NCBI GenBank assembly: GCA_030656575.1
Contig: JAUSPO010000039.1
Span: forward strand, 8,724-72,723
Direction of reading: 5' to 3'
DNA from: Bacillota bacterium
GTDB lineage: Bacteria > Bacillota > Dethiobacteria > DTU022 > UBA8154
Length of the DNA: 64,000 nt
Position numbers and translations under genes: made by a program. This document shows positions 2,912 through 58,116 of this stretch, piece after piece. Under the pieces are notes generated by a model, which was not told the DNA's origin, made no database searches, and was given only the letters and a program-made list of their open reading frames with translations. The first letter of the stretch is position 1. Each line of letters begins with the position of its first letter.

Positions 2912-2941
2912 GAGCCAGGGGGACGTTTCGCTTGGCCCAAG
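2912..2941. repeat. Dispersed repeat GAGCCAGGGGGACGTTTCGCTTGGCCCAAG (family copy)
   Basis: Near-identical 26-30 nt copies at 12228-12258 (same orientation) and 15108-15133 (reverse complement). Degenerate relatives at 2296-2351 and 12171-12204. Confidence 0.7.
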
Positions 2942-3042
2942 ACATCACTGCCCTGTTTGGTTTCCTGTTTTTGGCTGCTTATGTTATACTGAAAAAAGGG
3001 GGGTTACAGGAAATGGGTTCAAAGGAAATATAAAGCGGACTG

Positions 3043-5213
3043 GTGTCACTTGATGAAATGCTAAGCGGTTTTCGCCAGGGCGATAATGTAGTCTGGCAGG
3101 TAGACAGTCTGGATGAATATACATTCTTCGCAGAGCCTTTTGTGAAAGAGGCTCTACTGGATAACGAAGACTGTGTTTACCTGAGATTTGCCCCTCACCC
3201 CCCCCATTGTCAGTCCCCGAAAAGGCCTGATCATGAAGAAAGTGGACCCGGGACGCGGCTTTACATATTTTGTAACCGAAATACACAGGATTATCAGGGA
3301 ACAGGTAGAGGCCAAGACAAAATTTTTTATCTTCGACAATTTATCGGCCCTCGTGGATGAGTGGGCTACAGATGAATTGCTTGCAAATTTCTTCCAGGTG
3401 ACATGTCCTTTTCTAGGCGAACTGGATACAGTGGCTTATTTTGCATTAACGCGTGGCAGGCATGCGAATAGTGCCGTTGCCCGCATACGGGATACTACCC
3501 AAGGTGCTGATAGATGTTTATCGTATCAAAGAAGTGATCTATGTTCATCCTTTAAAAGTTTGGGATCGATATTCGCCCCAGATGTTTTTACCCCATATCG
3601 TTACCGGAAAAACACTTTGGCCTGTTTTCCAAAGCGGTGAGGCCGCCGAGGTCTCTTCTGTGGCCAGGAAAAATTCCCATAGTGAAAAAACCTCTATTGC
3701 CCCATGGGATAGTGTCTACAAAAAGATTTTTCAATACAAAGATTCTGGTGAAAAGTCAGCGACAGTGGCCACAGAACTGCAGGCCCTGAAACAGGAATTG
3801 GCCAGAATGTTGATAGGTAGTCACGCCGAGTTTAACAAGCTGTCTGAAGCTTTTTTTACTTTGGGGGATTTATTGGGAATCAGGGACAGGATGATCGGTT
3901 CTGGAAGAATTGGGGGCAAGGCAGCAGGAATGCTGCTCGCCAGGAGGATCTTATTGGATCTGCCGGGTGAGATTGAACAGGACTTTTTAGCCGGTTCATT
4001 CCCGCCGGATATCTACGAACAATTTCGGAGCATGCTGGATTATTTCGGACAGGCACCGATCATTATCCGTTCGAGCAGCCTTTTGGAAGACAGCTTTGGT
4101 AACGCTTTTGCCGGTAAATATCTAAGCATTTTCTGCGCCAACCAGGGGGGGCCTGAGGAAAGGCTTAATGCTTTTTCACGTGCTGTAAAACTTGTCTATG
4201 CAAGCGCGCTGAGCCCTGAAGTCCTTTCCTACAGGCTCAGGCGTGGTCTTGGGGAATCTGATGAACAGATGGCTATCCTCGTACAGCGTGTCTCAGGAAT
4301 GCGCTACAGGCATTATTTCTTTCCGAACCTTCCGAACAGCCAGCTGCTATTTTCCTTTATGAAAGACGGATATTTGTTTGATCCTCCGTATTTAGACATG
4401 GAGACGGGTTCAGCAGGTAAACCGGTCTTAACATTTAACAGGCTGATCAGCAGAACTCCTTTTGTAAAAGTTATGGGTGAAATGGTAGGAAAATTGGAAA
4501 GAGCTTACGGACATCCGGTAGATACAGAATTTACAGCATTTGTGAATTCACGGGGCAGTTTGAATGTTAATTTACTCCAGTGTCGCCCCTTACGGCTGCC
4601 GGGCTTGTCAGGGCCGCTGAAGTTTCCTGAGCATATTCAATCACATCAGATTCTTTTTAAATCTATGAAGGTTATTAATGGTGGACTGATCAGTCAGATA
4701 AAATATATTATATATATAGACCCCAGACGTTATGCTGTCATAAGCTCAGTTTCCTTGAAAAGGTCTGTTGGCAGAATCGTCGGTGCCCAGAATAAACACC
4801 CGCTTCTTGTGGATGGTCAATTTCTGATGATGGGTCCGGGCAGGTGGGGGAGCAGTAATATTGACCTTGGGGTAAATGTAAGCTATGCGGATATTGATAA
4901 CACTGCTGTTCTTGTTGAGATTGCCCGTGAAGCATCCGGGCATGTGCCGGAGGTATCTTACGGCACGCATTTTTTCCAGGATCTTGTAGAAGGGCAGATC
5001 ATTTACCTGCCTGTTTATCCGGAACTTCTGGAAACTGCTTTTAATAATAGTTTCTTTGAAGATTCGCCTAACTCTCTGGAAGAACTCCTGCCGGGAAATG
5101 AACAGTTAAAGAGTGTGGTACACGTGATCAATATTCCTGCTGTAACTAACGGTAAATATGCCAAAGTCGTGGCCGACCCACAGACACAAAAGGCTGTTTG
5201 CTTCCTTGAGTAA
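3043..5213 (+). pseudogene. PEP-utilizing enzyme (pyruvate,water dikinase-like PEP/pyruvate-binding domain) with N-terminal KaiC/RecA-like domain lacking a P-loop; disrupted by two +1 frameshifts
   Basis: Three consecutive ORFs in frames 1, 2, 3 (3043..3360, 3188..3640, 3453..5213) read as one protein. The first shift coincides with a C8 homopolymer at 3198-3205. PPDK_N-like region (IIRSSSLLEDSFGNAFAGKY, DEQMAILVQRVSG) is in the last ORF. Confidence 0.6.
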
Positions 5214-7771: not shown

Positions 7772-8032
7772 ACACGGTTCTTTTGTCCGACCGGCTTCCA
7801 CGCAAGATATAATGCCTGATTTAACGTGAACATTCACCTTGGACCGAGTCTTCCGGCCTTTATTACGCCAAACGTCCTTGATGTGCTGGTAAAAACATTT
7901 GACATCAAGCCCATATCTACTCCAGAAAAGGACCTGGCTGCAATCTTAGATACGAAGTAAGCAATCGGGGATAAAGGGAGGGACATTTTTTATCGGAACT
8001 GTAAAACGTAACCTCGGCTAGTTTAAGGTAAG

Positions 8033-8126
8033 GGGACACACCTCTTTTTTGCTAAGGTAAGGGGACACACCTCTTTCAGAGGAATGTCCCCAATGGATTG
8101 TCCCCGATCGTCCCTGGTTATGCGTT
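8033..8126. repeat. Tandem repeat TAAGGTAAGGGGACACACCTCTTT x2, followed by an inverted GGGGACA...TGTCCCC and a GTCCCC cluster
   Basis: Two direct 24-nt copies at 8035-8058 and 8063-8086. GGGGAC/GTCCCC motifs relate to the other dispersed repeats. Lies in the 5' leader of the 8186..8941 gene. Confidence 0.55.
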
Positions 8127-8185
8127 ACAGTACTGGTAAAAGGAGATGTCCCCCTTTCCCTACCTCGTCCAAAAGCAAGGAGGCG

Positions 8186-8941
8186 ATGAAGATTAAACTT
8201 GAGGGGAATTGTCAAACAACGGCTATGGGTATTATGCCTCACACTGATATGGAAAGGGCTCTTGAGCTTTCTCTTTCTCTGGATATACCGTTCTGGCCTC
8301 AACTGCCAAAAACGAGTTTTTTTGAGGATATGTATGTGCAGGTGTCCGAACATTTTCCGGGGATATCTCTGGATCTTGAAAATCGAATGATTAGATTTTC
8401 CATTGATAAGTTTTATGCTGACCTTGATGAATATGTGGCACAAATGGATAATCTGGATTACTTTCGTCTCTCTCCGCAGTATTCTGCTGTTTTCCATCGT
8501 TTTTTAGATGAGGATCTCTCTTCATACCAATACATAAGGGGCCAGAGTATAGGACCGGTAAGCTACGGTTTAAAGATTCTCGATGAGAATAATAAGCCCA
8601 TGATATACTATGACGAGGTAAGGGAGATAATTTTTGATTTTACAGCAAAAAAGTTGCAGGCTCAATACATCGAAATGAGAAGCAAAAGCGAAGGGGCCTT
8701 TGTTTGGGTGGATGAACCCGGCCTGGAGATGATTTTTAAGGCTTTTACAGGATATACGGGAGGAAAAGCTCTGGATGATTATCGCGTCTTCCTTGAAAAG
8801 TTTCCCGGGCCCAAAGGTGTTCATCTCTGCGGCAATCCGGACTGGTCTTTCCTGCTGCAGTTGGAGCTTGATATTCTTTCTATCGATGCTGACAGTGGAG
8901 AATTCGTATCGGTTATTAAAGGATGTTGCAGCACATTATAA
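8186..8941 (+). CDS. Hypothetical protein (~251 aa); possibly URO-D/MtaA-like fold, not confidently assignable
   Basis: Long ORF with protein-like composition. Start chosen at MKIKLEG after AAGGAGG. The ORF-track N-terminal extension (from 8084) runs across the repeat and looks non-coding. Confidence 0.4.
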   Translation: MKIKLEGNCQTTAMGIMPHTDMERALELSLSLDIPFWPQLPKTSFFEDMYVQVSEHFPGISLDLENRMIRFSIDKFYADLDEYVAQMDNLDYFRLSPQYSAVFHRFLDEDLSSYQYIRGQSIGPVSYGLKILDENNKPMIYYDEVREIIFDFTAKKLQAQYIEMRSKSEGAFVWVDEPGLEMIFKAFTGYTGGKALDDYRVFLEKFPGPKGVHLCGNPDWSFLLQLELDILSIDADSGEFVSVIKGCCSTL

Positions 8942-12701: not shown

Positions 12702-14651
12702 TTAACTGGCTTTGGCCGCATATTTGTCTTTTATTGAATTAATAATATCCGGATCCATTAAGGTGGTAGTGTCACCGATCACTTTTCCTTCAGCTATATC
12801 ACGGAGGAGCCGTCGTATGATTTTTCCACTGCGGGTTTTAGGAAGTTCAGCTGTAAAGTAAATATCCTCCGGGCGTGCCAACGCCCCGATTTTACTGACA
12901 ACCAATTTTTTCAGTTCTGCGACGAGTTCATCCGATCCGTTATGACTTTCCTTAAGTGTAACAAAGGCAGAGACAGCCTGCCCCTTAAGTTCATGTTTCT
13001 TGCCAATTACAGCAGCCTCTGCTACTGCAGGGTGTTCCACCAGCGCGCTTTCTATTTCCGCAGTTCCAAGACGATGCCCCGAAACGTTGATAACATCATC
13101 TATTCTCCCAATACACCAGATTGAACCATCTTCGTCTTTCTTGGCTCCGTCACCGGCCAGGTATATCCCTTCGTACTGCTGCCAGTAAGTGCTGAGATAA
13201 CGTTCTGGATCTTTATAAAGGTTGCGAAGCATCGCCGGGTAGGGTGTATTAACTACCAGGTAACCCTGTTCACCAGGCTTTACAGGTTTCCCCTGTTCAT
13301 CAACAACATCCACGTCCACACCGGGAAATGCGCGAGAGGCTGAACCTGGTTTGAAGGAGGCGTCTCCCGGAAGAGGGGTGATCAATATCATCCCTGTCTC
13401 TGTCTGCCACCATGTATCCATAACCGGGCATTTTTCTCCACCAATATATTTGTAATACCACATCCAAACTTCGGGATTAATAGGTTCTCCCACTGAACCG
13501 AGGATGCGAAGACTGCTGAGATCATGTCCTGCCAGCCACTCTTCACCCCAGCGCATGAACATACGGATTGCCGTGGGGGCAGTATAAAAAATGCTTACTC
13601 CGTATTTTTCAATAATAGACCAAAAGCGGTTCTGGGCCGGGAAATCAGGAGTCCCCTCAAACAGCACGGTTGTAGCCCCATTGGCCAGCGGACCATAAAC
13701 AATGTAACTGTGACCTGTTATCCATCCGATATCCGCAGTGCACCAGTATACATCCTGCTCCTGGTAGTCGAAGATATGCTTGAATGTAGTGTGAACGCCC
13801 ACCATATAACCTCCGGTGGTATGAAGAATGCCTTTGGGTTTTCCGGTCGTTCCGCTGCTATAGAGGATAAAGAGGGGGTCTTCGGCATCCATGACTTCCG
13901 GCTCGCAATATAACGCTGCATCATTGATCAGATCTGAGTACCATAGATCCCTGTCCTGTTCCATGTGAATATCCTGCCCGGTCCTATTAACAACTACCAC
14001 GTTTTTAATGCTTTGGCAGTTGCTGCCCTCCAGTGCTTTATCCACATTGTCTTTAAGAGGGACAACTTTGCCCTTCCTGTATCCTCCGTCGGCAGTAATC
14101 AAAACCTTGGAATTGGAATCCTCGATCCGGTCTTTCAGGGCGCCGGGACTAAAACCTCCAAAAACTACGCTGTGGGGCGCGCCAATCCGTGCGCATGCCA
14201 GCATGGCTATGACAGCCTCAGGGAGCATTGGCATATAAATTGTAACCACATCGCCTCGTTTTGTTCCCAGTTTCTTAAGGACGTCAGCAAATTGGTTAAC
14301 CTCGCGGTAAAGGTCCTGGTAAGTTAAGACACGCCTGTCGCCCCGGTCGCCTTCAAATATAATAGCTGCTTTATTTTTTCGCCAGCCGGAGATGTGACGG
14401 TCAACGCAGTTGAAGGATGCATTTAACTTGCCATCGTTGAACCATCTGTAAAAGGGTGCCTTACTATCGTCAAGGATTGTATTCCACTCTTCAAACCATG
14501 AAATATTTTTACTCATTTCGGACCAGAAATCCAGTCGGCCATGTCGGGCCTTTTCCCGCAGCTGATTGGTATTTTGTTTTACCGTTTTATCTGTAATGGG
14601 ATTTGCTATTTCCTGGTAAGGGACCGGGGTGTTATTCTGTTTTTCTTTCAT
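12702..14651 (-). CDS. acs: Acetyl-CoA synthetase (AMP-forming acetate--CoA ligase)
   Basis: 649 aa; AMP-binding signature ([11 protein letters not shown]), length and C-terminal Lys motif typical of Acs. Confidence 0.9.
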
Positions 14652-15107: not shown

Positions 15108-15177
15108 TGAGCCAAGCGAAACGTCCCCCTGGCATTTATTTACGTCCCCCTGGCATTTAATGGCCGGGGGGACGTGG
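15108..15177. repeat. Dispersed repeat (reverse-complement copy) CTGAGCCAAGCGAAACGTCCCCCTGG, followed by two further CGTCCCCCTGGCATTTA units and GGGGGGACG
   Basis: Reverse complement matches CCAGGGGGACGTTTCGCTTGGCTCAG (12231-12256). Overlaps the 3' junk tail of the glnA fragment. Confidence 0.7.
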
Positions 15178-15580
15178 GTTTTAGTATGCGGCTAAGTAGT
15201 TTTTTAGTTCCCAGTTCTTTTAATTCCCCCAATACCTTCTTTAGGACAACTCTGGAACAACCTGGAAAAGGGAGCCCATCCGCACCATAAACGTCGCAGA
15301 TCATTCTTGCCGTTTTACCTCTTCCAATATTTCGCCAGGGGAAAATGGCAAAGGTTGAAGGATCCGGGGCAAGACACATATCTGACTCATCAACCCTGAC
15401 AAAACCTTTTACTGATGAACCGTCGAACATTACCTGGTTATTTAATGCCTCATCGAGCTGTTTAGGAGAGATGGCCACATTTTTCAGCTTACCAAAGATA
15501 TCCGTAAACTGCAGTCTTATAAAATTAACATTCTCCTTTTCAACCAGATTTCTGACATTATCACCACAATATTCGTCCAA
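15140..15580 (-). pseudogene. glnA: Glutamine synthetase type I, N-terminal ~125 aa fragment (truncated)
   Basis: N-terminal GS beta-grasp domain (FIRLQFTDIFGKLKNV...MFDGSS...DPSTFAIFPW...LKKVLGELKELG). Similarity stops abruptly; the ORF then reads through the dispersed repeat into a stop. The remaining ~320 aa are absent. Confidence 0.7.
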
Positions 15581-16312: not shown

Positions 16313-16454
16313 ATCATTATCACCCTAACATACAGAAATTTGTACCTTTATCTTAAGCCAATTTAAAAAAAATGTCAAAAGACAAGTTGTAAAATTGTGA
16401 TATAATGATTTCAGACAGATTACTTTTGCTGAATTTTTTGGTGGTGATAGACAG

Positions 16455-17651
16455 ATGGAGAAAGATCCTTTTTCTGAATTTAGGGTATCCGTTGAATTGG
16501 ATGGAGAAAAACGCATCTCCGGGAATAATCTTTTTGACCTTTTGGAGAAGATTACGAGATATGGCTCCATCAGCAGAGCTGCTTCCGAAATGGGTATTTC
16601 TTACCGTTATTCCTGGGGGTTAATTCAGGCTGCCGAAAAAGCTTTAGGGCTGGCCCTTGTGAATAAGCAGATTGGCGGATATGAAGGTGGGGGAACATCT
16701 CTCACCCGGGAAGGTAAGGAACTTCTGGGCCAGTACAAGGAGTTTAAAGGTGAAGTAGACACCCAGCTAAACCGCTTTGTAAAAAAAGCAAAGCAGGCAA
16801 AGAATGCCGCCCATCCAACAAAGGATGGTTCTGGCCAAGGGGACGGTTCTTCCGGCCAGATTTTCCAACGGCACCTGCTGCTGGCCAGCACCATGGAGCC
16901 TGTGGAAACAGGATTGCTGGATGTTCTGGAAGGGGCTTTTTATCAGTCCTCCGGTGTACTGGTCAGGCACATCGCCCTTGGAAGCGGGCGTGCCCTGCAG
17001 ATTGCCAAAAGTGGACGAGTGGATATGGCCCTTACCCATGCCCCGGAACTTGAAGAGGAATTTATGGAGGAAGGGTGGGGGGAGTCCAGATTTCCCGTCA
17101 TGGCCAATGATTTTGTCCTTGTGGGCCCCGTTTCCGACCCTGCAGAAATTGCTAAAATTGACCCTTCTGGCGGCACAAAAGAAGCCTTTCGTAAGGTCGC
17201 CCTTTCACGTTCGCCTTTTATCAGCCGCGGTGATCATTCGGGAACTCACTTGAGGGAATTGAAAATATGGGAGTCTGCCGGTATTTCTCCTGAAGGAGAA
17301 TGGTATTTAAAATCTTCCGGTGTGGTCGGCAATTTGGGAATTCTGCGCCTTGCTCTGGAGAAAAAAGCCTATACCCTTGTTGACAGGGCTACCTTTCTTT
17401 TATCCCGCAGCTTTGAAAAAATGATCAGGATCTTTACCGGCACTGAAGAAGGTAATGCCCTGACCGGCGAATTGGAAAACATTTTTTCTTTAACCCTTGT
17501 GAACCCGGAGCGCATACCGACGGTTAATTCTGAAGACGCCCTGCTCTTTGCCGGGTGGATACAAGGGAAAGAAGCACAGCAGGTAATTGCCGGTTTTGGA
17601 CAGGAAAGCTTTGGGAGGCCGCTTTTTTCAATAGTGAACCCGTTCAGCTAA
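16455..17651 (+). CDS. TunR-like tungstate/molybdate-responsive regulator: ModE-type N-terminal HTH fused to a TupA-like periplasmic-binding-protein-fold domain
   Basis: N-terminus (LFDLLEKITRYGSISRAASEMGISYRYSWGLI) matches the ModE HTH. The C-terminal ~250 aa align colinearly with the TupA encoded at 20785..21630 (DAxLTHxP, FVLVGP, RGDxSGTH, AYTLxDRATxL). Confidence 0.7.
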   Translation: MEKDPFSEFRVSVELDGEKRISGNNLFDLLEKITRYGSISRAASEMGISYRYSWGLIQAAEKALGLALVNKQIGGYEGGGTSLTREGKELLGQYKEFKGEVDTQLNRFVKKAKQAKNAAHPTKDGSGQGDGSSGQIFQRHLLLASTMEPVETGLLDVLEGAFYQSSGVLVRHIALGSGRALQIAKSGRVDMALTHAPELEEEFMEEGWGESRFPVMANDFVLVGPVSDPAEIAKIDPSGGTKEAFRKVALSRSPFISRGDHSGTHLRELKIWESAGISPEGEWYLKSSGVVGNLGILRLALEKKAYTLVDRATFLLSRSFEKMIRIFTGTEEGNALTGELENIFSLTLVNPERIPTVNSEDALLFAGWIQGKEAQQVIAGFGQESFGRPLFSIVNPFS

Positions 17652-17697
17652 TGCTGAACATCGGCAAATCATTATAATCGAGGGAGAAAATTCCTAC

Positions 17698-17721
17698 CGT
17701 TATATATAGATAAGTATAACG
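17698..17721. promoter_or_regulatory. ModE-type operator palindrome CGTTATATATAGATAAGTATAACG upstream of modA
   Basis: Inverted repeat CGTTATA-N10-TATAACG matches the ModE box architecture (CGnTATATA...TAYATAnCG). Located between a TATAAT (17673-17678) and the modA RBS. Confidence 0.6.
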
Positions 17722-17751
17722 CAAAGTTTAACTTCATAGGGGATGATAAAA

Positions 17752-18642
17752 ATGGTTGGAATAAAAATCAAAGCATTTACTTTATGCCTTTCGCTATTAC
17801 TTCTTTTAACTATTATGGGATGCGGAAAGCTGGGTGTGGGAGATGTCAGCAAAAATCCGGAGCCAAGTTTACTGGTTTTTGCGGGGGCGGCCAGTAAGCC
17901 TTCAACAGAACTGGCTGCTAAAGCTTTTGGAGAAAAAACAGGTGTTAATGTGGAGCTAATTTTTGGCGGATCGGGATACGTGCTCTCACAGATGGAGCTA
18001 GGCAAAGCAGGAGACGTATACTTTCCCGGCTCTTCCGATTTTATGGAGATTGCAAAGGAAAAAGGACTGGTCTTTCCGGAAACAGAAGAATACATTGTAT
18101 ATCTTGTAAACGCTATCAACGTTAAGCGCGGTAATCCGCTAAACATCCAAAGCTTGGATGATCTAACCAGGCCGGGATTAAAAGTGGCCATTGCTAACCC
18201 AGAGGGTGTCTGCGTGGGCCTTTATGCCGTTGAAATCATTGAGAAAAGTTTTACTCCCGAAGAAAAGGAGATCTTCAAGGCTAATATTGTAAATTACCCT
18301 GAAAGCTGTGAAAAAACAGCCACTTCGATCTCAATGGGAACCGTTGATGCTGTGATTGGCTGGAGGGTTTTTGAACACTGGGATCCGGAGCGCATTGAAA
18401 CTATTCCCCTGAAGCCTGATGAAATTATTCGGGTAGGGTATATCCCCGCTGCCGTTTCCACCTTTACCCATAATAAAGAACTGGCTTTGCAATTCGTCGA
18501 GTATTTAGTCTCGTCAGAGGGTCAGCAGTTTTATAAAGAATTTCAATACTTTACCACTCCTGAAGAAGCTTTTGCTTATATCGAGGAAGTGCGCCCTGTA
18601 GGCGGCAGCTACAAGCTGCCTGAAAGCTGGGTGATAAAATGA
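17752..18642 (+). CDS. modA: Molybdate/tungstate ABC transporter substrate-binding lipoprotein (ModA/WtpA-like)
   Basis: Lipoprotein signal (LTIMGC). PBP type II fold similar to ModA/WtpA. First gene of the A-B-C operon. Confidence 0.7.
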   Translation: MVGIKIKAFTLCLSLLLLLTIMGCGKLGVGDVSKNPEPSLLVFAGAASKPSTELAAKAFGEKTGVNVELIFGGSGYVLSQMELGKAGDVYFPGSSDFMEIAKEKGLVFPETEEYIVYLVNAINVKRGNPLNIQSLDDLTRPGLKVAIANPEGVCVGLYAVEIIEKSFTPEEKEIFKANIVNYPESCEKTATSISMGTVDAVIGWRVFEHWDPERIETIPLKPDEIIRVGYIPAAVSTFTHNKELALQFVEYLVSSEGQQFYKEFQYFTTPEEAFAYIEEVRPVGGSYKLPESWVIK

Positions 18643-19421
18643 CATTTAAACGGGTCACTATTCTTTTTGCGATCAGCATTGTTCTTATCTATGGGGGACT
18701 TATTCTTTCTTTATACTCCTTTTTTTCCACAGAGCACTTGTTAAATATGATCCGTTCACCCAGAATCCTTTATTCTATTCGCCTCAGCATTGCTGCAGCG
18801 TCCATAACCGTGTTTTTTTCCATGATCCTGGCTGTCCCGGCTGCCTTTGCCCTTTCCCGTTATAACTTTGCGGGAAAGAGGATCGTTGATACTTTGCTTG
18901 AATTGCCTTTATTCGTCTCCCCTGCAGCCCTGGGAGCAATGATCCTTATTTTTTTCAATACTCCTGCGGGTGTTTGGGTTCAGGGTAATATTCAGCAGTT
19001 TGTTTTTACGGTTTACGGGATAGTTCTGGCGCAAATTATTGCTGTTTTGGGGATTTCAGTCCGGCTGGTAAAAGCGGTTTTTGATGAGATACCATTACGT
19101 TACGAAGCAGTGGCGAGGACGCTGGGTGCGTCTCCTTTCCGGGCATTTTCCACCGTTACACTTCCTAATGCCTACAAGGGTCTGTTTGCTGCCACGGTTC
19201 TCACATGGGCCAAAGCAGTGGGAGAGTTTGGCGCCACCGTTACCGTGGCAGGGACGATTGCCATGCGGACGGAAACTCTTCCCGTTTCCATTTACATGAG
19301 GCTGGCAAGCGCTGATATCGAAGGAGCTGTGGGATCCATTATAGTGCTTATCACTATAAGTCTTCTTGTTTTGTATTTTTCCAGGCTTTTGTTCTCAGGA
19401 GGCGGCTATGTTAGAAGTTAA
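18639..19421 (+). CDS. modB: Molybdate/tungstate ABC transporter permease (ModB/WtpB-like)
   Basis: Six TM helices, EAA-like loop (ARTLGASPFRAF). Overlaps modA stop (ATGA). Confidence 0.75.
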   Translation: MTFKRVTILFAISIVLIYGGLILSLYSFFSTEHLLNMIRSPRILYSIRLSIAAASITVFFSMILAVPAAFALSRYNFAGKRIVDTLLELPLFVSPAALGAMILIFFNTPAGVWVQGNIQQFVFTVYGIVLAQIIAVLGISVRLVKAVFDEIPLRYEAVARTLGASPFRAFSTVTLPNAYKGLFAATVLTWAKAVGEFGATVTVAGTIAMRTETLPVSIYMRLASADIEGAVGSIIVLITISLLVLYFSRLLFSGGGYVRS

Positions 19422-20493
19422 AAACCTTACTATTCGAGCTGGGGATTTTCAGGTAAGAGATATTAGTTTTTCCGTTCAAACAGGGAGCTGCCATGTTTTT
19501 TTAGGTCCCACGGGAAGCGGAAAAACTCTAATCCTGGAAACCGTTGCGGGTCTGCGCCTTCCGGAGAGTGGCACGATTTACCTGTCCGGAGAGGAAATTA
19601 CCAGCACCTTACCTGAAAAACGTAAAATAGCTTACCTGCCGCAGGACCTGGCCCTTTTTCCCAACATGACGGTAAAGGATAATATTTCCTACAGCATGCG
19701 AATAAACGGCCTTGACAAAAAAGAGAGCTACAAAAGAATTAAATCTTTGGCCCAAACGCTGGAAATTGAAGGTATCCTGGACAGGAGTATACACTATTTG
19801 AGCGGCGGCGAAAAACAGAGAGCAGCTCTGGCAAGGGCTTTGGCATCCGGCAGCAAAATGATGCTCTTGGATGAACCTCTTTCCTCTTTGAATACCAGAT
19901 TACGAAGGGATATTTGGTATTTATTAAAAAAGATTCAGTCAGAGCACGGGTTGACTTACTTAGTAGTCACTCATGATTTGGACGAAGCGTCTTTTTTAGG
20001 CGATACGATCAGCATTATTTTCGAGGGGGACCAGCTCCAGACGGGCGGCAAAAACTCGGTCTTTAACCATCCCACTTCCATTGAAGCCGCAGGGATCGTG
20101 GGAGTGGAAAATTATTTTAAAGGTGTAGTGGAAAAGATAGAGGAGAACTTTATAGTAATCTATTCTGAGGAAATAGGTACCGCATTTAAAGTAGAAAAAG
20201 ATAACTCGGCTTTTCCATTAAAAGAAGGTGCTCACATTACCATGGGGATTAGAGCAAACAATCTGTTCTTGGCAGAGCCGGATAATAAATCTATGGATAC
20301 AAATGCTGCTGAATTCGTTGTTGAAGCGGTATATGAAAAAGGTTCAACATACACTGTGCTGTTAAAGCATTTATACTGTAAGGATAGTAAAGCCCTGGCG
20401 GAAGTATTTAAGCATAACAATAAATTATCATTTAACATAGGGCAAACTGTGAAAGTCTTATTCCCGGGCGAATATATCATGATTTTGAGCTGA
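19408..20493 (+). CDS. modC: Molybdate/tungstate ABC transporter ATP-binding protein with C-terminal TOBE domain (ModC/WtpC-like)
   Basis: Walker A GPTGSGKT, LSGGEKQR signature, Walker B LLDEP, C-terminal TOBE-like domain. Start moved to MLEVKNL with GGAGG upstream. Confidence 0.75.
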   Translation: MLEVKNLTIRAGDFQVRDISFSVQTGSCHVFLGPTGSGKTLILETVAGLRLPESGTIYLSGEEITSTLPEKRKIAYLPQDLALFPNMTVKDNISYSMRINGLDKKESYKRIKSLAQTLEIEGILDRSIHYLSGGEKQRAALARALASGSKMMLLDEPLSSLNTRLRRDIWYLLKKIQSEHGLTYLVVTHDLDEASFLGDTISIIFEGDQLQTGGKNSVFNHPTSIEAAGIVGVENYFKGVVEKIEENFIVIYSEEIGTAFKVEKDNSAFPLKEGAHITMGIRANNLFLAEPDNKSMDTNAAEFVVEAVYEKGSTYTVLLKHLYCKDSKALAEVFKHNNKLSFNIGQTVKVLFPGEYIMILS

Positions 20494-20570
20494 ATAACGG
20501 TGCCTGGCACTTAACTTATTAACTTATTGTCACCATTGCGGATTCCTGACCCACTCTATAAAAGTTTTCG

Positions 20571-20600
20571 TTGACACCTTTTCTTTTTATTGTTTATAAT
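20571..20600 (+). promoter_or_regulatory. Consensus sigma-A promoter TTGACA-N18-TATAAT for the tupABC operon
   Basis: Exact -35 and -10 hexamers. About 185-nt structured leader follows before tupA. Confidence 0.55.
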
Positions 20601-20784
20601 AGCTATAAGGTAGATTAATTTACTATAAAATATGTTCTCGTTCAAGTAAGGGTTGTTTTTTTGAAAAGGCCGCTGTCGAAGTTTGGCAGAGGGTGATTTT
20701 TTTTGCCCCCAATATGCACGGCTGTGCATATTGGGAAAAGATAATTGAATTTGAAGCACCAAATACGAAAAGGGGTTGTTAAAA

Positions 20785-21630
20785 ATGCGTGTATTCTTTA
20801 AATTATTATGCCTTACGCTTGCGATTATACTTATAGGCGGCTGCAGTAATGCACCTGTAGACAAAGGGGAAGTGGATAAGGTAGATGAATTTATTATTCT
20901 CGCCACCACAACCAGCACATACGATTCGGGGCTTCTGGACGTACTGCTTCCCGTTTTCAGCCAAAAATACGGTACTAAAGTCCGGGTGATTTCCCAGGGG
21001 ACGGGCCAGGCCCTGGAAACCGGCAAGAGGGGAGACGCAGATCTGCTTCTCGTCCACGACCGTGCTTCAGAACTGCAGCTGGTTGAGGAGGGGCACTTTA
21101 CGGACCGGCAGGATGTAATGTTCAATGACTTTATTGTTGTGGGCCCGTCCGCAGACCCGGCAGGGCTGAAAGGAATTGAGAAGGTGACGGATGCTTTTAC
21201 TGCCATTGCTTTCGGGGGTCATACGTTTGTTTCCCGTGGAGACGATTCAGGAACAAACCGGAAGGAGCTTTCTCTCTGGGAAAAAGCGGGTATTGGCGAT
21301 TTTAAAGATTGGTACCTTTCGGTAGGACAGGGTATGGGCGACACCCTGCGCATGGCAGGAGAGAAACAGGCTTACACCCTGACAGACCGGGCTACCTATC
21401 TTTCTTTAAAGAATTCCCTGGATCTGGAGATTGTGCTGGAAGGTGACTCCCTTCTCTTTAATCAGTACGGAATTATGGCCGTGAATCCTGCAAATCATTC
21501 TCATGTTAAGTATGAGAGTGCTGTGAAGTTCATTGACTTCTTGATGTCTTCGGAGGGACAGGAGTTGATCGCTTTTTTCCAAATCGGGGGGGAAGGTCTT
21601 TTCTTCCCGGGTAAAGGCGTGGATGATTGA
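20785..21630 (+). CDS. tupA: Tungstate ABC transporter substrate-binding lipoprotein TupA
   Basis: Lipobox LIGGC. TupA-family motifs (TTTSTYDSGLLD, RGDDSGT, AYTLTDRATYL). Confidence 0.8.
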   Translation: MRVFFKLLCLTLAIILIGGCSNAPVDKGEVDKVDEFIILATTTSTYDSGLLDVLLPVFSQKYGTKVRVISQGTGQALETGKRGDADLLLVHDRASELQLVEEGHFTDRQDVMFNDFIVVGPSADPAGLKGIEKVTDAFTAIAFGGHTFVSRGDDSGTNRKELSLWEKAGIGDFKDWYLSVGQGMGDTLRMAGEKQAYTLTDRATYLSLKNSLDLEIVLEGDSLLFNQYGIMAVNPANHSHVKYESAVKFIDFLMSSEGQELIAFFQIGGEGLFFPGKGVDD

Positions 21631-21692
21631 GTATAACATACCAGACGACATTAACGAGCTAAAAAGCTGATGAAAGTATGAGGATTGATTAA

Positions 21693-22391
21693 ATGTCCCT
21701 TTTAAAAGGAATCGCCGAAGCCTTTTCATTAATATTAACTCTTGATCCTTACCTGACACAGATTGTGCTGCTTTCCCTGCAGGTTTCAGGTTTGGCTGTG
21801 TTCTTTGCCGCCTTGGCAGGAGTTCCCCTGGGGACTTACCTGGGCCTTAAGCCCCAGGAGCGGACCCGTTTTGCCGGCAAGCTGCTCTATACACTAATGG
21901 GGATGCCGCCCGTGGTGGCCGGACTTCTCTTTTATCTCCTTTTTTCCCGCATGGGTCCTTTTGGTGTTTTGGGTCTTCTTTACACTCCCACAGCCATGAT
22001 CCTGGCCCAGTTTGTCCTGGCCGTTCCCATTATTGCTGCATTAACCATGATCGGTATCCGCAGCAGGGGAAAAGATGTGCAGGAAACTGCCCGCACCCTG
22101 GGCGCAGGAAGGCTTCTAACCGCCTGGACAGTGGTTCGTGAATCCCGCTTTGCCATCTCTGGAGCTATCGTTACCGGACTGGGGAGAGTAATTGCCGAGG
22201 TGGGTGCCGTAATGATCGTTGGAGGAAACATCGAGGGGCATACCCGGGTCATGACCACGGCTATTGTCCTGGAAACCGGCAAGGGAAATTTTGAGCTGGC
22301 TGTGGGGCTGGGGCTGGTCCTTTTAATCATTTCCTTTGTTATTAACTCCCTTCTCTATAGTTTCCAGGGAGGAGGTAAGGAAATTGCCTGA
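21693..22391 (+). CDS. tupB: Tungstate ABC transporter permease TupB
   Basis: Five to six TM helices, ABC permease fold, operon position. Confidence 0.75.
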   Translation: MSLLKGIAEAFSLILTLDPYLTQIVLLSLQVSGLAVFFAALAGVPLGTYLGLKPQERTRFAGKLLYTLMGMPPVVAGLLFYLLFSRMGPFGVLGLLYTPTAMILAQFVLAVPIIAALTMIGIRSRGKDVQETARTLGAGRLLTAWTVVRESRFAISGAIVTGLGRVIAEVGAVMIVGGNIEGHTRVMTTAIVLETGKGNFELAVGLGLVLLIISFVINSLLYSFQGGGKEIA

Positions 22392-23124
22392 TAAGGATAT
22401 TATTCTTGAAGTAAAAAATCTCTCCAAGGTTTTTGATAAAGAGGTTCTTAATATTAAGAAACTGTCTTTTCGCAGGGGTAAAGTGTATGGAATTATTGGG
22501 CCCAGCGGTTCCGGGAAGAGCACTTTTTTGCGCCTTGTTAATCTGTTGGAGCTGCCCACAAAGGGTAAGATTTACTTTAAGGGTGAGGATATCTCAATGA
22601 ACGGCCGGACAGATATCCCGGCACGGCGGGAGATGACCTTGGTGTTCCAGAAACCTCTTCTTTTCAGGACCAGCGTGGAAGAAAACATTGCTTATGGCCT
22701 TAAGGCCCGCCGCTTCACAAAAGAAGAGATCAAGGCACGGGTTGAAACCCTCCTGGAAAAAGTGGGCCTCAGGGATTTTGCCGGCAGGCACGCCGGAACC
22801 CTCTCCGGGGGCGAGGCCCAGCGAGTGGCCCTGGCCAGGGCGGTGGCCTTCGAGCCAGCCCTTCTGCTCATGGACGAGCCTACGGCTAATCTGGATCCTT
22901 CAAACGTGGAACTTATTGAGCGGCTGATCATGGATCTAAACCGAAATACAGATATGACTATTGTTATGGTCACGCACAACATCTTCCAGGCCAGGCGGGT
23001 TGCCCAGGATGTTATTTTTCTGCATGAAGGGCGTATTGTGGAGATGGGGGCCACGGAAAAAATGTTTACATCCCCCCAAGATCCCCGTACCAGGGCCTTT
23101 GTGGATGGACGGATGATCTTCTAA
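22384..23124 (+). CDS. tupC: Tungstate ABC transporter ATP-binding protein TupC
   Basis: Walker A GPSGSGKST, LSGGEAQR, LLMDEP. TTG start overlapping tupB stop, with GGGAGGAGG 8 nt upstream. Confidence 0.75.
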   Translation: MPDKDIILEVKNLSKVFDKEVLNIKKLSFRRGKVYGIIGPSGSGKSTFLRLVNLLELPTKGKIYFKGEDISMNGRTDIPARREMTLVFQKPLLFRTSVEENIAYGLKARRFTKEEIKARVETLLEKVGLRDFAGRHAGTLSGGEAQRVALARAVAFEPALLLMDEPTANLDPSNVELIERLIMDLNRNTDMTIVMVTHNIFQARRVAQDVIFLHEGRIVEMGATEKMFTSPQDPRTRAFVDGRMIF

Positions 23125-53168: not shown

Positions 53169-53615
53169 TTATTTTAATCTTTTTAAAATCAATTCATCAT
53201 GCTTGGCTACTTCAACTTCTATGCGGTCTAGTTTCTGTGAAGTTTGTATGTACCCGTCAAAAAGAGCAGCTAATTTCTGCCCGTGTTGATTTTCGATTTT
53301 GATAACAATATCTTTAATAAACTTAACGTCCGTTTTAACATCCGACAATTCAGTTTTAACGCTGGCTACTTCCGTTTTAACACCTGATAATTCAGTTTTA
53401 ACGCTGGCTACTTCCGTTTTAACACCTGATAATTCAGTTTTAACGTTAGCTACTTCCGTTTTAACACCTGATAATTCAGTTTTCATGCTAGCTACTTCCG
53501 TTTTAACACCTGACAATTCAGTTTTAATATCTGCAAATTCAATTTTTGTGACCATGTTGGTTTCCATACCAGCGATTTTTTGCAGTATCGTTTCTAATAG
53601 TTCCCTATCTTTCAT
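53169..53615 (-). CDS. Coiled-coil repeat protein with five tandem 14-aa repeats (TELSGVKTEVASVK)
   Basis: Encoded by 42-bp tandem DNA repeats at 53331-53540 with near-identical central copies. Confidence 0.55.
   Translation of the reverse strand: MKDRELLETILQKIAGMETNMVTKIEFADIKTELSGVKTEVASMKTELSGVKTEVANVKTELSGVKTEVASVKTELSGVKTEVASVKTELSDVKTDVKFIKDIVIKIENQHGQKLAALFDGYIQTSQKLDRIEVEVAKHDELILKRLK
53331..53540. repeat. 42-bp tandem repeat x5 (CGTTTTAACACCTGATAATTCAGTTTTAACGCTGGCTACTTC) inside the 53169..53615 CDS
   Basis: Copies 2 and 3 differ by 1-2 nt. Confidence 0.8.
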
Positions 53616-55048: not shown

Positions 55049-55288
55049 ATCACCTGCCGGGACAACCAGTTCCGGGATGGTTTGTCTTCTTGATAGATCA
55101 TCTCTGTTTATTATGTAATTTACCCCGTTCCTATAGATTATGACTCTATTTAAAAAGAAATTATATCACAGCCAGGGTGGAATAACAAAAAACAAATTGG
55201 AAAATATTATAATCAAAAATAAGTTTGAAATAAGTTTGAAATAAAAATTATATTGATTTTATTGGTTCTTTGCTTTATTATTATTTAG

Positions 55289-55678
55289 ATGAACAATAAA
55301 AAAGCAAAAGAACTTAGGGGATACGAAGTGCCTTATTCCAGGGGACAAATGGAAGATGAAGTAACCAAGGCAATGATTCAGTGGGAAAAGGAATATATGG
55401 GACGGGGGCCTATTGAAGCGAGAACGGATATTGTACGCAATATGATTATTGTTACCTTAAAAGGGATCCTTTCTCAGGCAGAAAAGCATCTGGCTAACAA
55501 CAGCGAAGGAATGATTCTGATCAAAAGATTGCGGGAGCAATTAGTTGAGCAGAGGCGTTCTGAACTGGAAGAAATAATCTTCAGGGTAACTTCAACAAAG
55601 GTGATCAGCTTGCATACAGATTTAAGTACCCGGACGGGGGAAAGAATTTTTGTTTTTGTGACTGAAAAAGAAATTTAA
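55289..55678 (+). CDS. DUF2294-family protein
   Basis: EVTKAMIQWEKEYMGRGP...ISLHTDLSTRTGERIFVF, the typical DUF2294 signature. Confidence 0.55.
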   Translation: MNNKKAKELRGYEVPYSRGQMEDEVTKAMIQWEKEYMGRGPIEARTDIVRNMIIVTLKGILSQAEKHLANNSEGMILIKRLREQLVEQRRSELEEIIFRVTSTKVISLHTDLSTRTGERIFVFVTEKEI

Positions 55679-55730
55679 GAGTCGTAAGGTTGGAAGTCAA
55701 TTAAAGGGTAAATTGATCAGTTAATCTGAA

Positions 55731-55780
55731 ATCCAACACCAAATGATGTAAAGCATCATCGGTGTTGGATTTTTTTTTTG
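55731..55780 (+). terminator. Strong rho-independent terminator (16-bp stem + T10)
   Basis: ATCCAACACCAAATGATG...CATCATCGGTGTTGGAT followed by TTTTTTTTTT. Confidence 0.8.
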
Positions 55781-55811
55781 GAGATAAAGAATAAAGGAGG
55801 AAGCAACGTAT

Positions 55812-56339
55812 ATGGTGGATTATGAACTAAAAAACCGCATTATAATGAAAGAAATCTTCTCATCTTTCAGGGGAACAGAGAACGAGCTTATTCCAATTTT
55901 ACAACATGTGCAGGAGCATTTCGGGTACCTGCCGGAGAGCGCTATGCTTGAAGTCGCCAGGTTTATATCCGTGTCCGAGAGCAAAGTTTATGCTACAGCC
56001 TCGTTTTACAGTCAGTTCAGATTTAAAGCCACAGGTAAAAAACATATTACCGTGTGTCAGGGGACAGCATGTCATGTCCGGGGAGCCGGGAAAATCCAGG
56101 ACACCCTTGAACGGCAGCTGGGCATAAAAGAGGGTGAAACAACCGCCGACCAGGAATACAGCCTGGAAGCTGTTGCCTGTATTGGATGTTGTGCCCTTGC
56201 ACCCTGTATAGCCGTTAACAATGAAACTATCTATGGCCGGCTGACTCCACAAAAAGTGAAAGTTGTTCATGAACCGATTAGAGGGGAGAGAAAAAATGGC
56301 CAAAAGAACCATTCTGGTCAGCCAGGGAACATGCTGTAA
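55812..56339 (+). CDS. NuoE-like [2Fe-2S] subunit of NAD(P)-dependent formate dehydrogenase (FdsG/HndA-like)
   Basis: Thioredoxin-like [2Fe-2S] motif (CxxxxC...CxxxC: CQGTACHVRG...CIGCCALAPC). Confidence 0.75.
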   Translation: MVDYELKNRIIMKEIFSSFRGTENELIPILQHVQEHFGYLPESAMLEVARFISVSESKVYATASFYSQFRFKATGKKHITVCQGTACHVRGAGKIQDTLERQLGIKEGETTADQEYSLEAVACIGCCALAPCIAVNNETIYGRLTPQKVKVVHEPIRGERKNGQKNHSGQPGNML

Positions 56340-58089: not shown

Positions 58090-58116
58090 CCAAGGACCAA
58101 AGGAGGCTTTGCAGCA

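Follow-up and report, generated by a model that had tools for sequence, protein, structure and literature searches.

A ModE-type regulator with a TupA-like sensor domain and two ModE-type boxes beside tandem Mo/W importer operons in a Bacillota bacterium

We analyzed a window of 64,000 nucleotides of a Bacillota genome (contig JAUSPO010000039.1), in which a regulator gene and two sets of importer genes lie one after the other on the forward strand. The regulator gene (16455..17651; an ORF with profile and structure matches) encodes a protein of 398 aa in which a low-complexity linker joins a ModE-type winged HTH to a TupA-like PBP sensor domain. Next come genes for a ModA-like lipoprotein substrate-binding protein (17752..18642; lipobox IMGC, SBP_bac_11 E 4e-43), a ModB-like permease (18639..19421; profile searches) and a ModC/WtpC-like ATPase (19408..20493). 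The second set encodes a TupA lipoprotein whose TTTS motif is intact (20785..21630; PBP_like_2 E 2e-42, NF041772 E 2e-61), a TupB permease (21693..22391; NF038017 234 bits, above cut-off, and TupB E 4e-46) and a TupC ATPase (22384..23124; profiles), whose likely TTG start at 22384, after GGAGGAGG, was chosen by eye. An earlier reading of the locus, in a preliminary description of the same stretch, as a unit controlling Mo/W uptake is supported. The ModA-like protein reaches 53.7 bits with the modA model TIGR01256 (cut-off 62.5) and has molybdate-binding proteins as its best PDB matches, and the ATPase scores best among NCBIfam models with WtpC (E 5e-77, below cut-off). Since the three proteins remain under every NCBIfam equivalog cut-off and the ATPase is closest to WtpC, we regard the first importer as a candidate for Mo or W.

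In profile searches, residues 23-112 of the regulator matched HTH_1/ModE_repress and residues 132-391 matched PBP_like_2/TupA, in agreement with the proposed fusion of a ModE-type HTH to a TupA-like sensor. The DNA-binding domain (aa 23-112, 16521..16790), which contains GSISRAASEMGISYRYSW, was recognized by TIGR00637 (E 1.1e-20, 73.5 bits, under the curated 98.5) and by PF00126 (29.7 bits, over the cut-off), and its PDB matches are the ModE N-domains 2ijl, 1b9m and 1o7l. It is homologous to the winged HTH of E. coli ModE, with 40% identity over 68 aa (ModE aa 22-89) and the common pattern GSIS..A...GISY[KR]..W.

The sensor domain (aa 139-391, 16869..17627) matches NF041772 (TupA; E 4.5e-44) and PF12849 (E 2.7e-24) and aligns end to end with the TupA structures 3lr1 (E 1e-44) and 5my5 (E 7e-37). 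It was also said to be colinear with the TupA encoded downstream, and indeed the two share 40% identity over 242 aa (E 3e-49). When compared with the ligand residues of TupA (PMC5517513), the domain retains H195, R258, T264 and D310, and these His, Arg, Thr and Asp columns are invariant across the family. TupA itself is a periplasmic tungstate-binding protein; the sensor lacks an export signal, its N-terminus being the HTH domain, with neither signal peptide nor lipobox, whereas the TupA and ModA of the window carry lipoboxes. It also differs from TupA at S145-T146-M147-E148 (nt 16887-16898), which stands where TupA has TTTS, and Glu occupies the position of the TTTS serine in 108/111 regulator homologues. 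As this serine faces the binding site in TupA, the ligand or its coordination may differ in the regulator. Transport TupAs are monophyletic (43/43) and the regulator sensors form a separate lineage; a sensor is no more similar to the TupA of its own locus than to any other TupA (35% identity).

The regulator is not of a new kind but part of a common family, whose members number several hundred or more; these carry generic database names only, and the family appears uncharacterised. An identical protein, P0001 from a Bacillota MAG, is called only 'substrate-binding domain-containing protein'. Homologues also bear the name LysR-type regulator; we rejected this assignment, as the LysR_substrate co-inducer domain (PF03466) reached only E 0.023 and 14.5 bits in the regulator, below the cut-off of 28. 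PF12727 (PBP_like) gave no match in the regulator; this family is present in a neighbouring gene of the related locus L010.

Box A (17698..17721), a ModE-type operator of the form CGTTATATA-TAGATA-AGTATAACG, lies between the regulator and modA-like genes, and was identified by repeat search, by its likeness to the E. coli operator and with a position weight matrix (PWM) of the box family. Its sequence, CGTTATATATAGATAAGTATAACG, holds the 7+7 inverted repeat CGTTATA-N10-TATAACG, for which, with up to one mismatch, it is the sole match in the window (0 in 100 shuffles). It begins 46 nt past the regulator stop and ends 30 nt ahead of the modA ATG, abutting the modA RBS. Compared with the E. coli modA operator CGTTATATTGTCGCCTACATAACG, 13/14 outer positions are equal, as is the spacing, so that the claim of a genuine ModE-type operator at this place stands. 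Box A also fits the ModE operator CGNTATATA-N6-TATATANCG found near Mo transport genes, the consensus being that given in PMC545781, and reaches 27.7 bits in the family PWM. The related loci L010, L011 and L030 have boxes nearly identical to it ahead of modA, and the distance from box end to modA start codon is 22-33 nt in L011 and L030, as it is in E. coli and in the window. The palindrome had been placed between a -10 element and the RBS; the palindrome is confirmed, but the supposed -10 is a lone TATAAT hexamer (17673..17678, forward strand, read from the sequence) 19 nt upstream of the box. It was missed by the promoter scan, which found no convincing modA promoter, and we do not call it a promoter because it has no acceptable -35.

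For the tup operon, a consensus promoter with a ~185-nt leader and no ModE box had been described. The promoter P1 (TTGACA-N18-TATAAT, 20571..20600, forward strand) is indeed a 12/12 match in the promoter scan, with a slightly shorter leader of about 177 nt. The absence of a box does not hold. A perfect 12+12 inverted repeat spans 20708-20735, with the core CAATATGCAC-GGCT-GTGCATATTG, and its central 24 nt form box B (20710..20733; CAATATGCA-CGGCTG-TGCATATTG), a variant operator with ModE-box geometry, recognized by repeat search and by alignment with relatives. An alignment with 16 related loci matches it column by column to their tupA boxes, to which it is homologous. With a leave-one-out PWM built from the relatives only, box B outscores every other site in the 64 kb: it reaches 24-26 bits, the best unrelated site 9.3, and with the T-run included the two values become 42.6 and 8.3 bits. 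Both conserved CG dinucleotides, which are at least 90% conserved in the relatives, are missing from box B, which gets no more than 1.3 bits from the whole-family PWM; it is thus probably a weaker site.

The position of box B is also unusual for a repressor, as it sits far downstream of the only strong tup promoter, 109 nt beyond the -10 of P1 and 51 nt ahead of the tupA ATG. In 8 further loci, too, the box is preceded by the same perfect N18 promoter, at a distance of 75-160 nt. A T8 run (20697..20704, forward strand), preceded by a G-run (20691-20693), ends 5 nt before box B and is a conserved flank in the clade: columns T31-T34 of the alignment are invariant in 17 loci. This run may lengthen the operator, or it may supply the -35/UP region of a promoter embedded here, TTGCCC-N18-CATATT. 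A Moco riboswitch had been suggested for the leader, but the RF01055 scan gave no match at the gathering score in the window, and no Moco family matched at E<=10 in 20480-20830.

Boxes of this kind are not confined to the window. The family consensus is CGNTATRYA-N6-TRYATANCG, and it is ~40-fold enriched over 66 related loci. PWM matches of at least 12 bits number 57 in 799 kb of related loci (22 of them training sites, 35 not), as compared to 1.3 in shuffles. Nearly all boxes adjoin a regulator gene, ahead of tupABC, modABC, MFS_MOT1 or Peripla_BP_2 transporter genes; tupABC is the gene set most commonly found beside a box in the relatives. In ~15 loci the box begins 0-27 nt past a sigma-70 -10 element. 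The layout of the window is repeated independently in L010, with box A, modABC, the regulator gene and a divergently oriented tupABC whose box B carries the T-run. The FDH-like cluster of the window has no box, and the window holds no aor gene. L010 and L030 encode additional ModE-type or PBP-type regulators, and such regulators elsewhere in the genome may compete for the same boxes.

The regulator shares with E. coli ModE the 24-bp operator geometry, the operator position just upstream of the modA start and an oxyanion ABC importer as target; ModE, however, senses molybdate by two C-terminal Mop/TOBE domains, in place of which the regulator, where TOBE/Mop was not found even at E<=1, carries the TupA-like PBP domain. 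The EMSA-validated motif of Methanosarcina acetivorans ModE, RTTATGT-N8-RCATAAY (PMC12327845), corresponds to the TATG-type boxes and half-sites of the regulator family (CGTTATGY-N8-RCATAACG). That protein is archaeal, has a single Mop sensor and no PBP domain, and regulates alternative nitrogenases. In Campylobacter jejuni the ModE-like Cj1507c represses the separate mod and tup importers, with differing responses at the two operons (Taveirne et al. 2009, cited in PMC3417520); it has no domain for binding metal, so that a partner is presumably required, whereas here the sensor is fused.

The architecture had been called TunR-like, which does not agree with the domains found. As reportedly described by Kazakov and colleagues in 2013, TunR of sulfate-reducing Deltaproteobacteria joins an XerC/XerD-integrase-like DNA-binding domain to ModE-like Mop sensor domains, and we take this name to apply to the 'integrase + MOP' chimeras of Desulfovibrio. 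The motif of these chimeras is CGGTCACG-N14-CGTGACCG (PMC545781). The likeness lies in a tungstate-responsive regulator encoded within mod clusters. Neither the integrase domain (PF00589) nor TOBE/Mop was matched in the regulator at E<=1, and the 30-bp motif has 0 matches in the window even when 3 mismatches are allowed; the architecture is not that of TunR. The nearest described design is instead TaoR (Rajeev et al. 2019, cited in PMC11980592 and PMC12327845), a Desulfovibrio alaskensis protein that combines an HTH_17 with a cytoplasmic PBP-like domain (TupA-related, IPR024370) and controls tungsten-related genes, among them aor and those for Mo/W transport. The two differ in the head, which is an HTH_17 (excisionase/MerR-type) in TaoR (PMC11980592) and solely a ModE-type HTH_1 in the regulator, with its PF12849/TupA sensor; hence their operators differ. 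DNA binding by TaoR in vitro was reportedly unaffected by tungstate (PMC12327845), so that ligand-gated binding cannot be assumed for the window regulator.

Taken together, the domain composition, the two boxes, their homology to validated ModE operators and the conservation and position of such boxes in relatives are probably best explained by a one-component Mo/W switch, an oxyanion-loaded repressor of both importers acting at operators of unequal strength. What we infer here is the ligand, repression as the direction of control and which of the two boxes binds more tightly. A cytoplasmic TupA paralogue, whose cleft would bind tungstate and possibly also molybdate, here replaces the Mop/TOBE sensor of ModE. 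Having retained the DNA-binding head of ModE, the regulator would also use a ModE operator, and the loaded dimer would stop transcription of the uptake genes from the 24-bp boxes, giving negative feedback. Box A would serve as the full-consensus site between the regulator and modA-like genes, and box B as a symmetric, CG-less variant in the tupA leader, below the consensus promoter and possibly overlapping a weak second promoter. With boxes at both importers, ModABC-like and TupABC would both belong to the regulon, the former probably being shut tighter, or at lower metal, than the latter. The differential control put forward in the preliminary description may still hold through operator strength and position, but not through presence versus absence of a box.

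It could be argued that only the modABC-like operon is controlled, through box A, with tupABC constitutive or governed by its leader and the leader palindrome not a binding site: box B lacks both CG dinucleotides with its 1.3 bits in the whole-family PWM, lies 109 nt below the -10, and M. acetivorans ModE binds less well to sites with single substitutions (PMC12327845). We consider this unlikely, since 16 loci have CG-containing tupA boxes that align with box B, equally placed and within the same T-run module, and since box B is the top window match for a model that excludes it and has a perfect 12+12 palindrome of the sort hardly expected to survive in a decayed site; in the relatives, moreover, it is tupABC that most often stands next to a box. 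The module of purine run, U8 and palindrome might also act as RNA (hairpin, attenuator or stability element), instead of or besides a DNA operator. It is transcribed from a conserved upstream promoter in at least 9 loci, the palindrome reaches 10-12 bp in the clade, the column pair 42-63 is a strand-specific G.U in 11/17 loci, and a U-run follows the palindrome in several loci. An embedded -10 (CATAAT/CATATT) explains the G.U bias equally well, however, and two-sided changes in pairs could equally come from symmetric half-sites. Covariation is weak, with the G-run/C-run helix paired in 63%; Rfam models gave no match, even at E<=10; the fold of the leader only marginally beats shuffles (z -1.97, equalled by 8/200). 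The stretch from promoter to module varies from 33 to 160 nt without sequence conservation, hairpins upstream are inconsistent, and the conserved bases are exactly those of a ModE operator, which makes an RNA role very doubtful. The combined proposal, that the purine run, T7-8 run and extended palindrome of the clade's tupA leaders, transcribed from the perfect upstream promoter, form a dual-level element (a ModE-type operator doubling as leader RNA hairpin/attenuator or embedded second promoter), and that the TupA paralogue with its invariant Glu is a tungstate-selective cytoplasmic sensor with non-TupA coordination chemistry, is distinctly unlikely.

Two further readings concern the protein itself. 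It might work in reverse, activating the transport genes, or binding DNA in the apo form with release by metal; TunR reportedly activates modABC, with tungstate lessening the activation, as described in 2013 by Kazakov and colleagues. Boxes 75-160 nt below strong promoters are not classical repressor sites either, and the weak embedded promoter TTGNCC-N18-CATAAT might require help. Against this, the box in ~15 relatives is directly adjacent to, or overlaps, a good promoter's -10/TSS, and box A abuts the modA RBS, placements typical of steric repression, and metal-induced high-affinity importers would amount to positive feedback. The analogy with ModE at modA likewise favours repression (PMC4139814, PMC3417520), and we give reverse action little credence. 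It is also conceivable that the TupA-like domain has lost its response to tungstate and molybdate, now binding another anion, or nothing and serving only as a dimerisation scaffold: STME replaces TTTS, with the Glu in 108/111 family members, and a carboxylate is unfavourable in an oxyanion pocket unless it acts as a ligand. In archaeal WtpA/ModA-type proteins, carboxylates directly ligate W/Mo, so the Glu need not abolish binding. With the TupA-site His, Arg, Thr and Asp invariant and the regulon made of Mo/W transporter genes, loss of sensing seems highly improbable.

The switch we favour would act on the two importers; at the promoter-like site of the regulator gene itself, no ModE-type box was found. 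This site (16379..16406, forward strand) reads AAGACA-N16-TATAAT with a TG preceding the -10, and agrees with the consensus at only 10/12 positions. At the other end of the gene, the inverted-repeat search revealed a 7-bp hairpin, GTTCAGC/GCTGAAC (17642..17659, forward strand), which, with no T-run after it, spans the regulator stop codon.

The sequence observation made in the preliminary description of this locus was largely confirmed, far beyond chance, while its interpretation needs two corrections, one to the family name of the regulator and one to the claim that tupABC is free of a ModE box. The regulator is a 398-aa protein (16455-17651, + strand) in which residues 23-112 form a ModE-type winged HTH (Pfam PF00126 above cut-off; NCBIfam TIGR00637, E 1e-20) and residues 132-391 a TupA-like periplasmic-binding-protein domain (PF12849, E 3e-24; NF041772 TupA, E 4.5e-44). 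Among solved structures, the N-terminal part matched the ModE N-domains 2ijl, 1b9m and 1o7l, and the C-terminal part the TupA proteins 3lr1 (E 1e-44) and 5my5 (E 7e-37). The N-terminal domain shares 40% identity with residues 22-89 of E. coli ModE, including the helix-turn-helix stretch GSIS..A...GISY[KR]..W, and the C-terminal domain does resemble the TupA encoded 3 kb downstream (40% identity over 242 residues, E 3e-49). No TOBE/Mop, integrase or genuine LysR_substrate domain was detected in the regulator even with the threshold relaxed to E<=1; in ModE, the Mop domains bind both metals, tungstate and molybdate. A lipoprotein signal sequence is present in both ModA and TupA and absent from the regulator.

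In the structure of D. alaskensis TupA, the binding site is made up of the TTTS residues, His59, Arg118, Thr124 and Asp170 (PMC5517513). The aligned regulator positions are His195, Arg258, Thr264 and Asp310, which are invariant across an 18-member regulator alignment (43-86% identity), and TTTS is replaced by S-T-M-E. Of 111 homologues, 108 have Glu where TTTS has its serine; the transport TupAs of the same loci retain TTTS. Since the ligand residues are invariant but the TTTS serine has become Glu, the regulator is likely to sense an oxyanion, with a chemistry that may differ from that of TupA. An origin of the sensor in a recent local duplication of tupA was ruled out, since its identity to the TupA of the same locus (mean 35%) equals that to any other TupA, and the transport TupAs form a single clade (43/43).

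The preliminary description had called the protein TunR-like, a label that does not hold. TunR is reportedly the name given by Kazakov (2013) to chimeric proteins of Desulfovibrio, together with a XerC/D description, and TunR and TaoR have each been studied in one Desulfovibrio species. These chimeras combine a phage integrase domain with MOP and are associated with the motif CGGTCACG-N14-CGTGACCG (PMC545781), whereas the protein studied here has neither integrase-like nor Mop domains and the window does not contain the motif. The closest design is that of TaoR, in which an HTH_17 head, different from the DNA-binding head found here, is joined to a PBP-like sensor; its regulatory targets are a tungsten enzyme and Mo/W transport (PMC11980592; PMC12327845). 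In function, the closest precedent comes from C. jejuni, where one ModE-like protein represses both operons, mod when Mo or W is present and tup with W alone (PMC3417520). The C. jejuni protein lacks any sensor domain. Judged from its sequence, the window protein thus couples a DNA-binding module of the ModE family to a TaoR-style sensor. A search of the accessible literature found no described regulator with a ModE-HTH and a TupA-like domain, which is weak evidence of absence.

The regulator gene is followed on the + strand by modA-like (17752-18642), modB (18639-19421), modC (19408-20493), tupA (20785-21630), tupB (21693-22391) and tupC (22384-23124). The first transporter is ModABC-like, yet falls under every NCBIfam equivalog cut-off, with an ATPase closest to WtpC, and its nearest structural relatives are molybdate-binding proteins, so that it may prefer either molybdate or tungstate.

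The ModE-type palindrome reported ahead of modA, box A (CGTTATATATAGATAAGTATAACG, 17698-17721), forms a perfect inverted repeat (7+7) around a 10-nt spacer, and is the sole match with <=1 mismatch in 64 kb, with none in 100 shuffles. Between its end and the modA ATG lie 30 nt, against 22 nt for the modA operator of E. coli K-12 (CGTTATATTGTCGCCTACATAACG, taken from NC_000913.3), with which it shares 13 of 14 outer positions and the 24-bp geometry. Box A also agrees with the published consensus ATCGNTATATA-N6-TATATANCGAT (PMC545781). The -10 element described before it is present as a TATAAT hexamer (17673-17678), but has no usable -35 and was not called by the promoter scan, which found no convincing sigma-70 promoter for modA. 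In view of this lone hexamer, modABC may be transcribed largely from the promoter-like site of the regulator (16379-16406), and box A would then impede transcription from the regulator gene into modA.

Among 8000 candidates scored, more than 800 were homologues of the regulator; the best 120 have the same length, and most carry both Pfam domains in pre-computed annotation. Their database names are limited to 'LysR family transcriptional regulator', 'substrate-binding domain-containing protein' or 'tungstate transport system substrate-binding protein'. In anaerobic Bacillota the family numbers at least several hundred proteins, many of the sampled ones from soda-lake, serpentinising or deep-subsurface metagenomes. 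A locus scan with one genome per species yielded 66 loci, mostly from Dethiobacteria or Syntrophomonadaceae MAGs, along with Dethiobacter, Desulfitispora, Anoxynatronum, Gudongella, Tindallia and Alkalibacter. Across these loci the regulator gene usually adjoins tupABC, and only in the window is a modABC-like operon inserted between them.

A whole-family position weight matrix (PWM) built from 22 palindromes, with the consensus CGTTATGCA-N6-TGCATAACG, found 57 sites of >=12 bits in 799 kb, versus 1.3 in dinucleotide shuffles, and 35 of >=20 bits, versus 0; 35 of the 57 lay outside the training set. The TATG-type half-site seen in the family is identical to that of the EMSA-validated Methanosarcina acetivorans ModE motif RTTATGT-N8-RCATAAY (PMC12327845). 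Nearly all sites are intergenic and adjoin the regulator gene. In the related loci the box precedes tupA, and it is also found before modA (loci L010, L011, L030), an MFS_MOT1 molybdate transporter (L038, L039, L043), a Peripla_BP_2-type ABC system (L017), or the regulator gene itself (Gudongella, Tindallia). In about 15 loci it starts 0-27 nt past the -10 of a good sigma-70 promoter (0 nt in L047, L052 and L054), the placement expected of a steric repressor. High-scoring boxes also occur 5' of genes for proteins that are very large (1232-1854 aa) and appear to be secreted (L007 8451/8523, L034 8172, L044 8159/8342). Locus L030 has a stand-alone gene for a 109-aa ModE N-domain (7947-8276, - strand), which diverges from modA across a 29.7-bit box, so some genomes have extra ModE-type proteins that could share boxes.

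The tup operon does have the consensus promoter attributed to it (TTGACA-N18-TATAAT, 20571-20600, 12/12 match). It had also been described as lacking a ModE box, and here the description fails: the tupA leader holds a perfect 12+12 inverted repeat (20708-20735), whose 24-nt core, box B (CAATATGCA-CGGCTG-TGCATATTG, 20710-20733), has ModE-box geometry and carries the family half-site core TATGCA/TGCATA, unique within the window. When 16 related loci were aligned with it without gaps at their tupA-proximal boxes, three elements matched column for column, namely the box, a T7-8 run lying 5-6 nt 5' of it and a G-run further upstream. The loss of both CG dinucleotides hides box B from the whole-family PWM (1.3 bits), and a clade-specific leave-one-out model was needed. 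With a PWM from the 16 relatives alone, box B ranks first over both strands of the 64-kb window (24-26 bits), ahead of box A (11.8 bits) and the best unrelated site (9.3 bits); when the T-run was included, the leave-one-out values were 42.6 versus 8.3. Its sole departure from the relatives is a G-to-A change in the outer CG of both arms, at a position >=90% conserved among them, and tupA boxes of this clade are generally weaker matches than modA-type boxes (9-17 versus 26-29 bits). The arrangement recurs in L010, an independent replicate with box A, modABC, the regulator gene and, in divergent orientation, a tupABC whose box B has the T-run. The data support two predicted operators of unequal quality, box A and box B, and with a conserved box B in the leader, different control of the two importers can no longer be argued from the absence of a box at tupABC.

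The T-run and G-run flank (20691-20704 in the window) is conserved at about 20 Dethiobacteria/Syntrophomonadaceae loci (the window, L001, L005-L018, L021, L023, L024, L036), also at some boxes outside tup. It may extend the operator, or serve as the -35/UP region if a promoter, TTGNCC-N18-CATAAT, is embedded here. As for the leader acting as an RNA, a check for a Moco riboswitch had been suggested, but no Rfam family, this one included, gave a match, either in the window scanned at gathering score or in the leader scanned at E<=10. The 184-nt leader folds barely better than shuffles (z -1.97). In nine loci (the window, L005, L009, L012, L013, L017, L021, L023, L024) a perfect TTGACA-N18-TATAAT, always with an 18-nt spacer, lies 75-160 nt 5' of the box, mostly ahead of tupA and, in L017, of the Peripla_BP_2 system; the leaders of these loci are of very unequal lengths and have no common sequence. 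The second outer pair of the box is a strand-specific G.U in 11 of the 17 aligned loci, which an RNA hairpin would explain. It would equally be explained by the embedded promoter, with TTGNCC taken from the T-run end and CATAAT/CATATT from the right half-site, 18 nt apart, the same spacer as in the consensus promoters of the clade. Pair counts in the alignment showed no clear covariation and are uninformative, and hairpins 5' of the T-run are inconsistent, with no consistent terminator hairpin there. On these grounds the RNA-structure reading was rejected.

Negative feedback is the most probable mechanism: a single metal-loaded ModE-type repressor would act on both oxyanion importers, using a strong operator at modA and, in the tupA leader, a weakened and conserved one. 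We regard this whole chain, as deduced from genomic sequence, as moderately probable; DNA recognition at box A merits greater confidence, and lower confidence attaches to which ligand is bound and to how the two operators compare in strength. The window locus is otherwise ordinary negative-feedback uptake control. How gene regulation discriminates tungstate from molybdate in cells is poorly understood. TupA is, to our knowledge, the most tungstate-selective binding protein, and a family that joins a TupA paralogue to a well-understood DNA-binding head and operator offers a compact, readily testable candidate for a tungstate-specific transcription factor and a possible chassis for W/Mo biosensors. 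Awareness of this family and of its box would yield better annotation and Mo/W regulon prediction for the anaerobic Bacillota that carry it.

In the window, a cluster at 55289-60876 encodes NuoE/NuoF-like proteins and a 919-aa molybdopterin oxidoreductase, and resembles an NAD-linked formate dehydrogenase, a Mo/W enzyme. No further box was found in the window, this cluster included (best other PWM score 5.2 bits). An 11-nt tandem repeat (AAATAAGTTTG x2.5, 55217-55244) lies just 5' of the cluster, and a 42-nt unit is repeated 4.7 times (93% matches) within overlapping ORFs at 53329-53546. A perfect 7-bp hairpin (GTTCAGC/GCTGAAC, 17642-17659) spans the regulator stop codon, with no T-run behind it. 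Two ORFs of equal length (649 aa) flank the region (32-1981, + strand; 12702-14651, - strand), the latter acetyl-CoA synthetase-like as judged by eye. A 146-aa ORF (15140-15580, - strand) corresponds by eye only to the N-terminal part of glutamine synthetase, and may be a gene fragment or pseudogene. In L010, a second PBP-type regulator (2912-4051; HTH_3 and PBP_like, PF12727) is encoded directly 5' of box A, modABC and the regulator gene, which places two different HTH-PBP regulators at one Mo/W locus.
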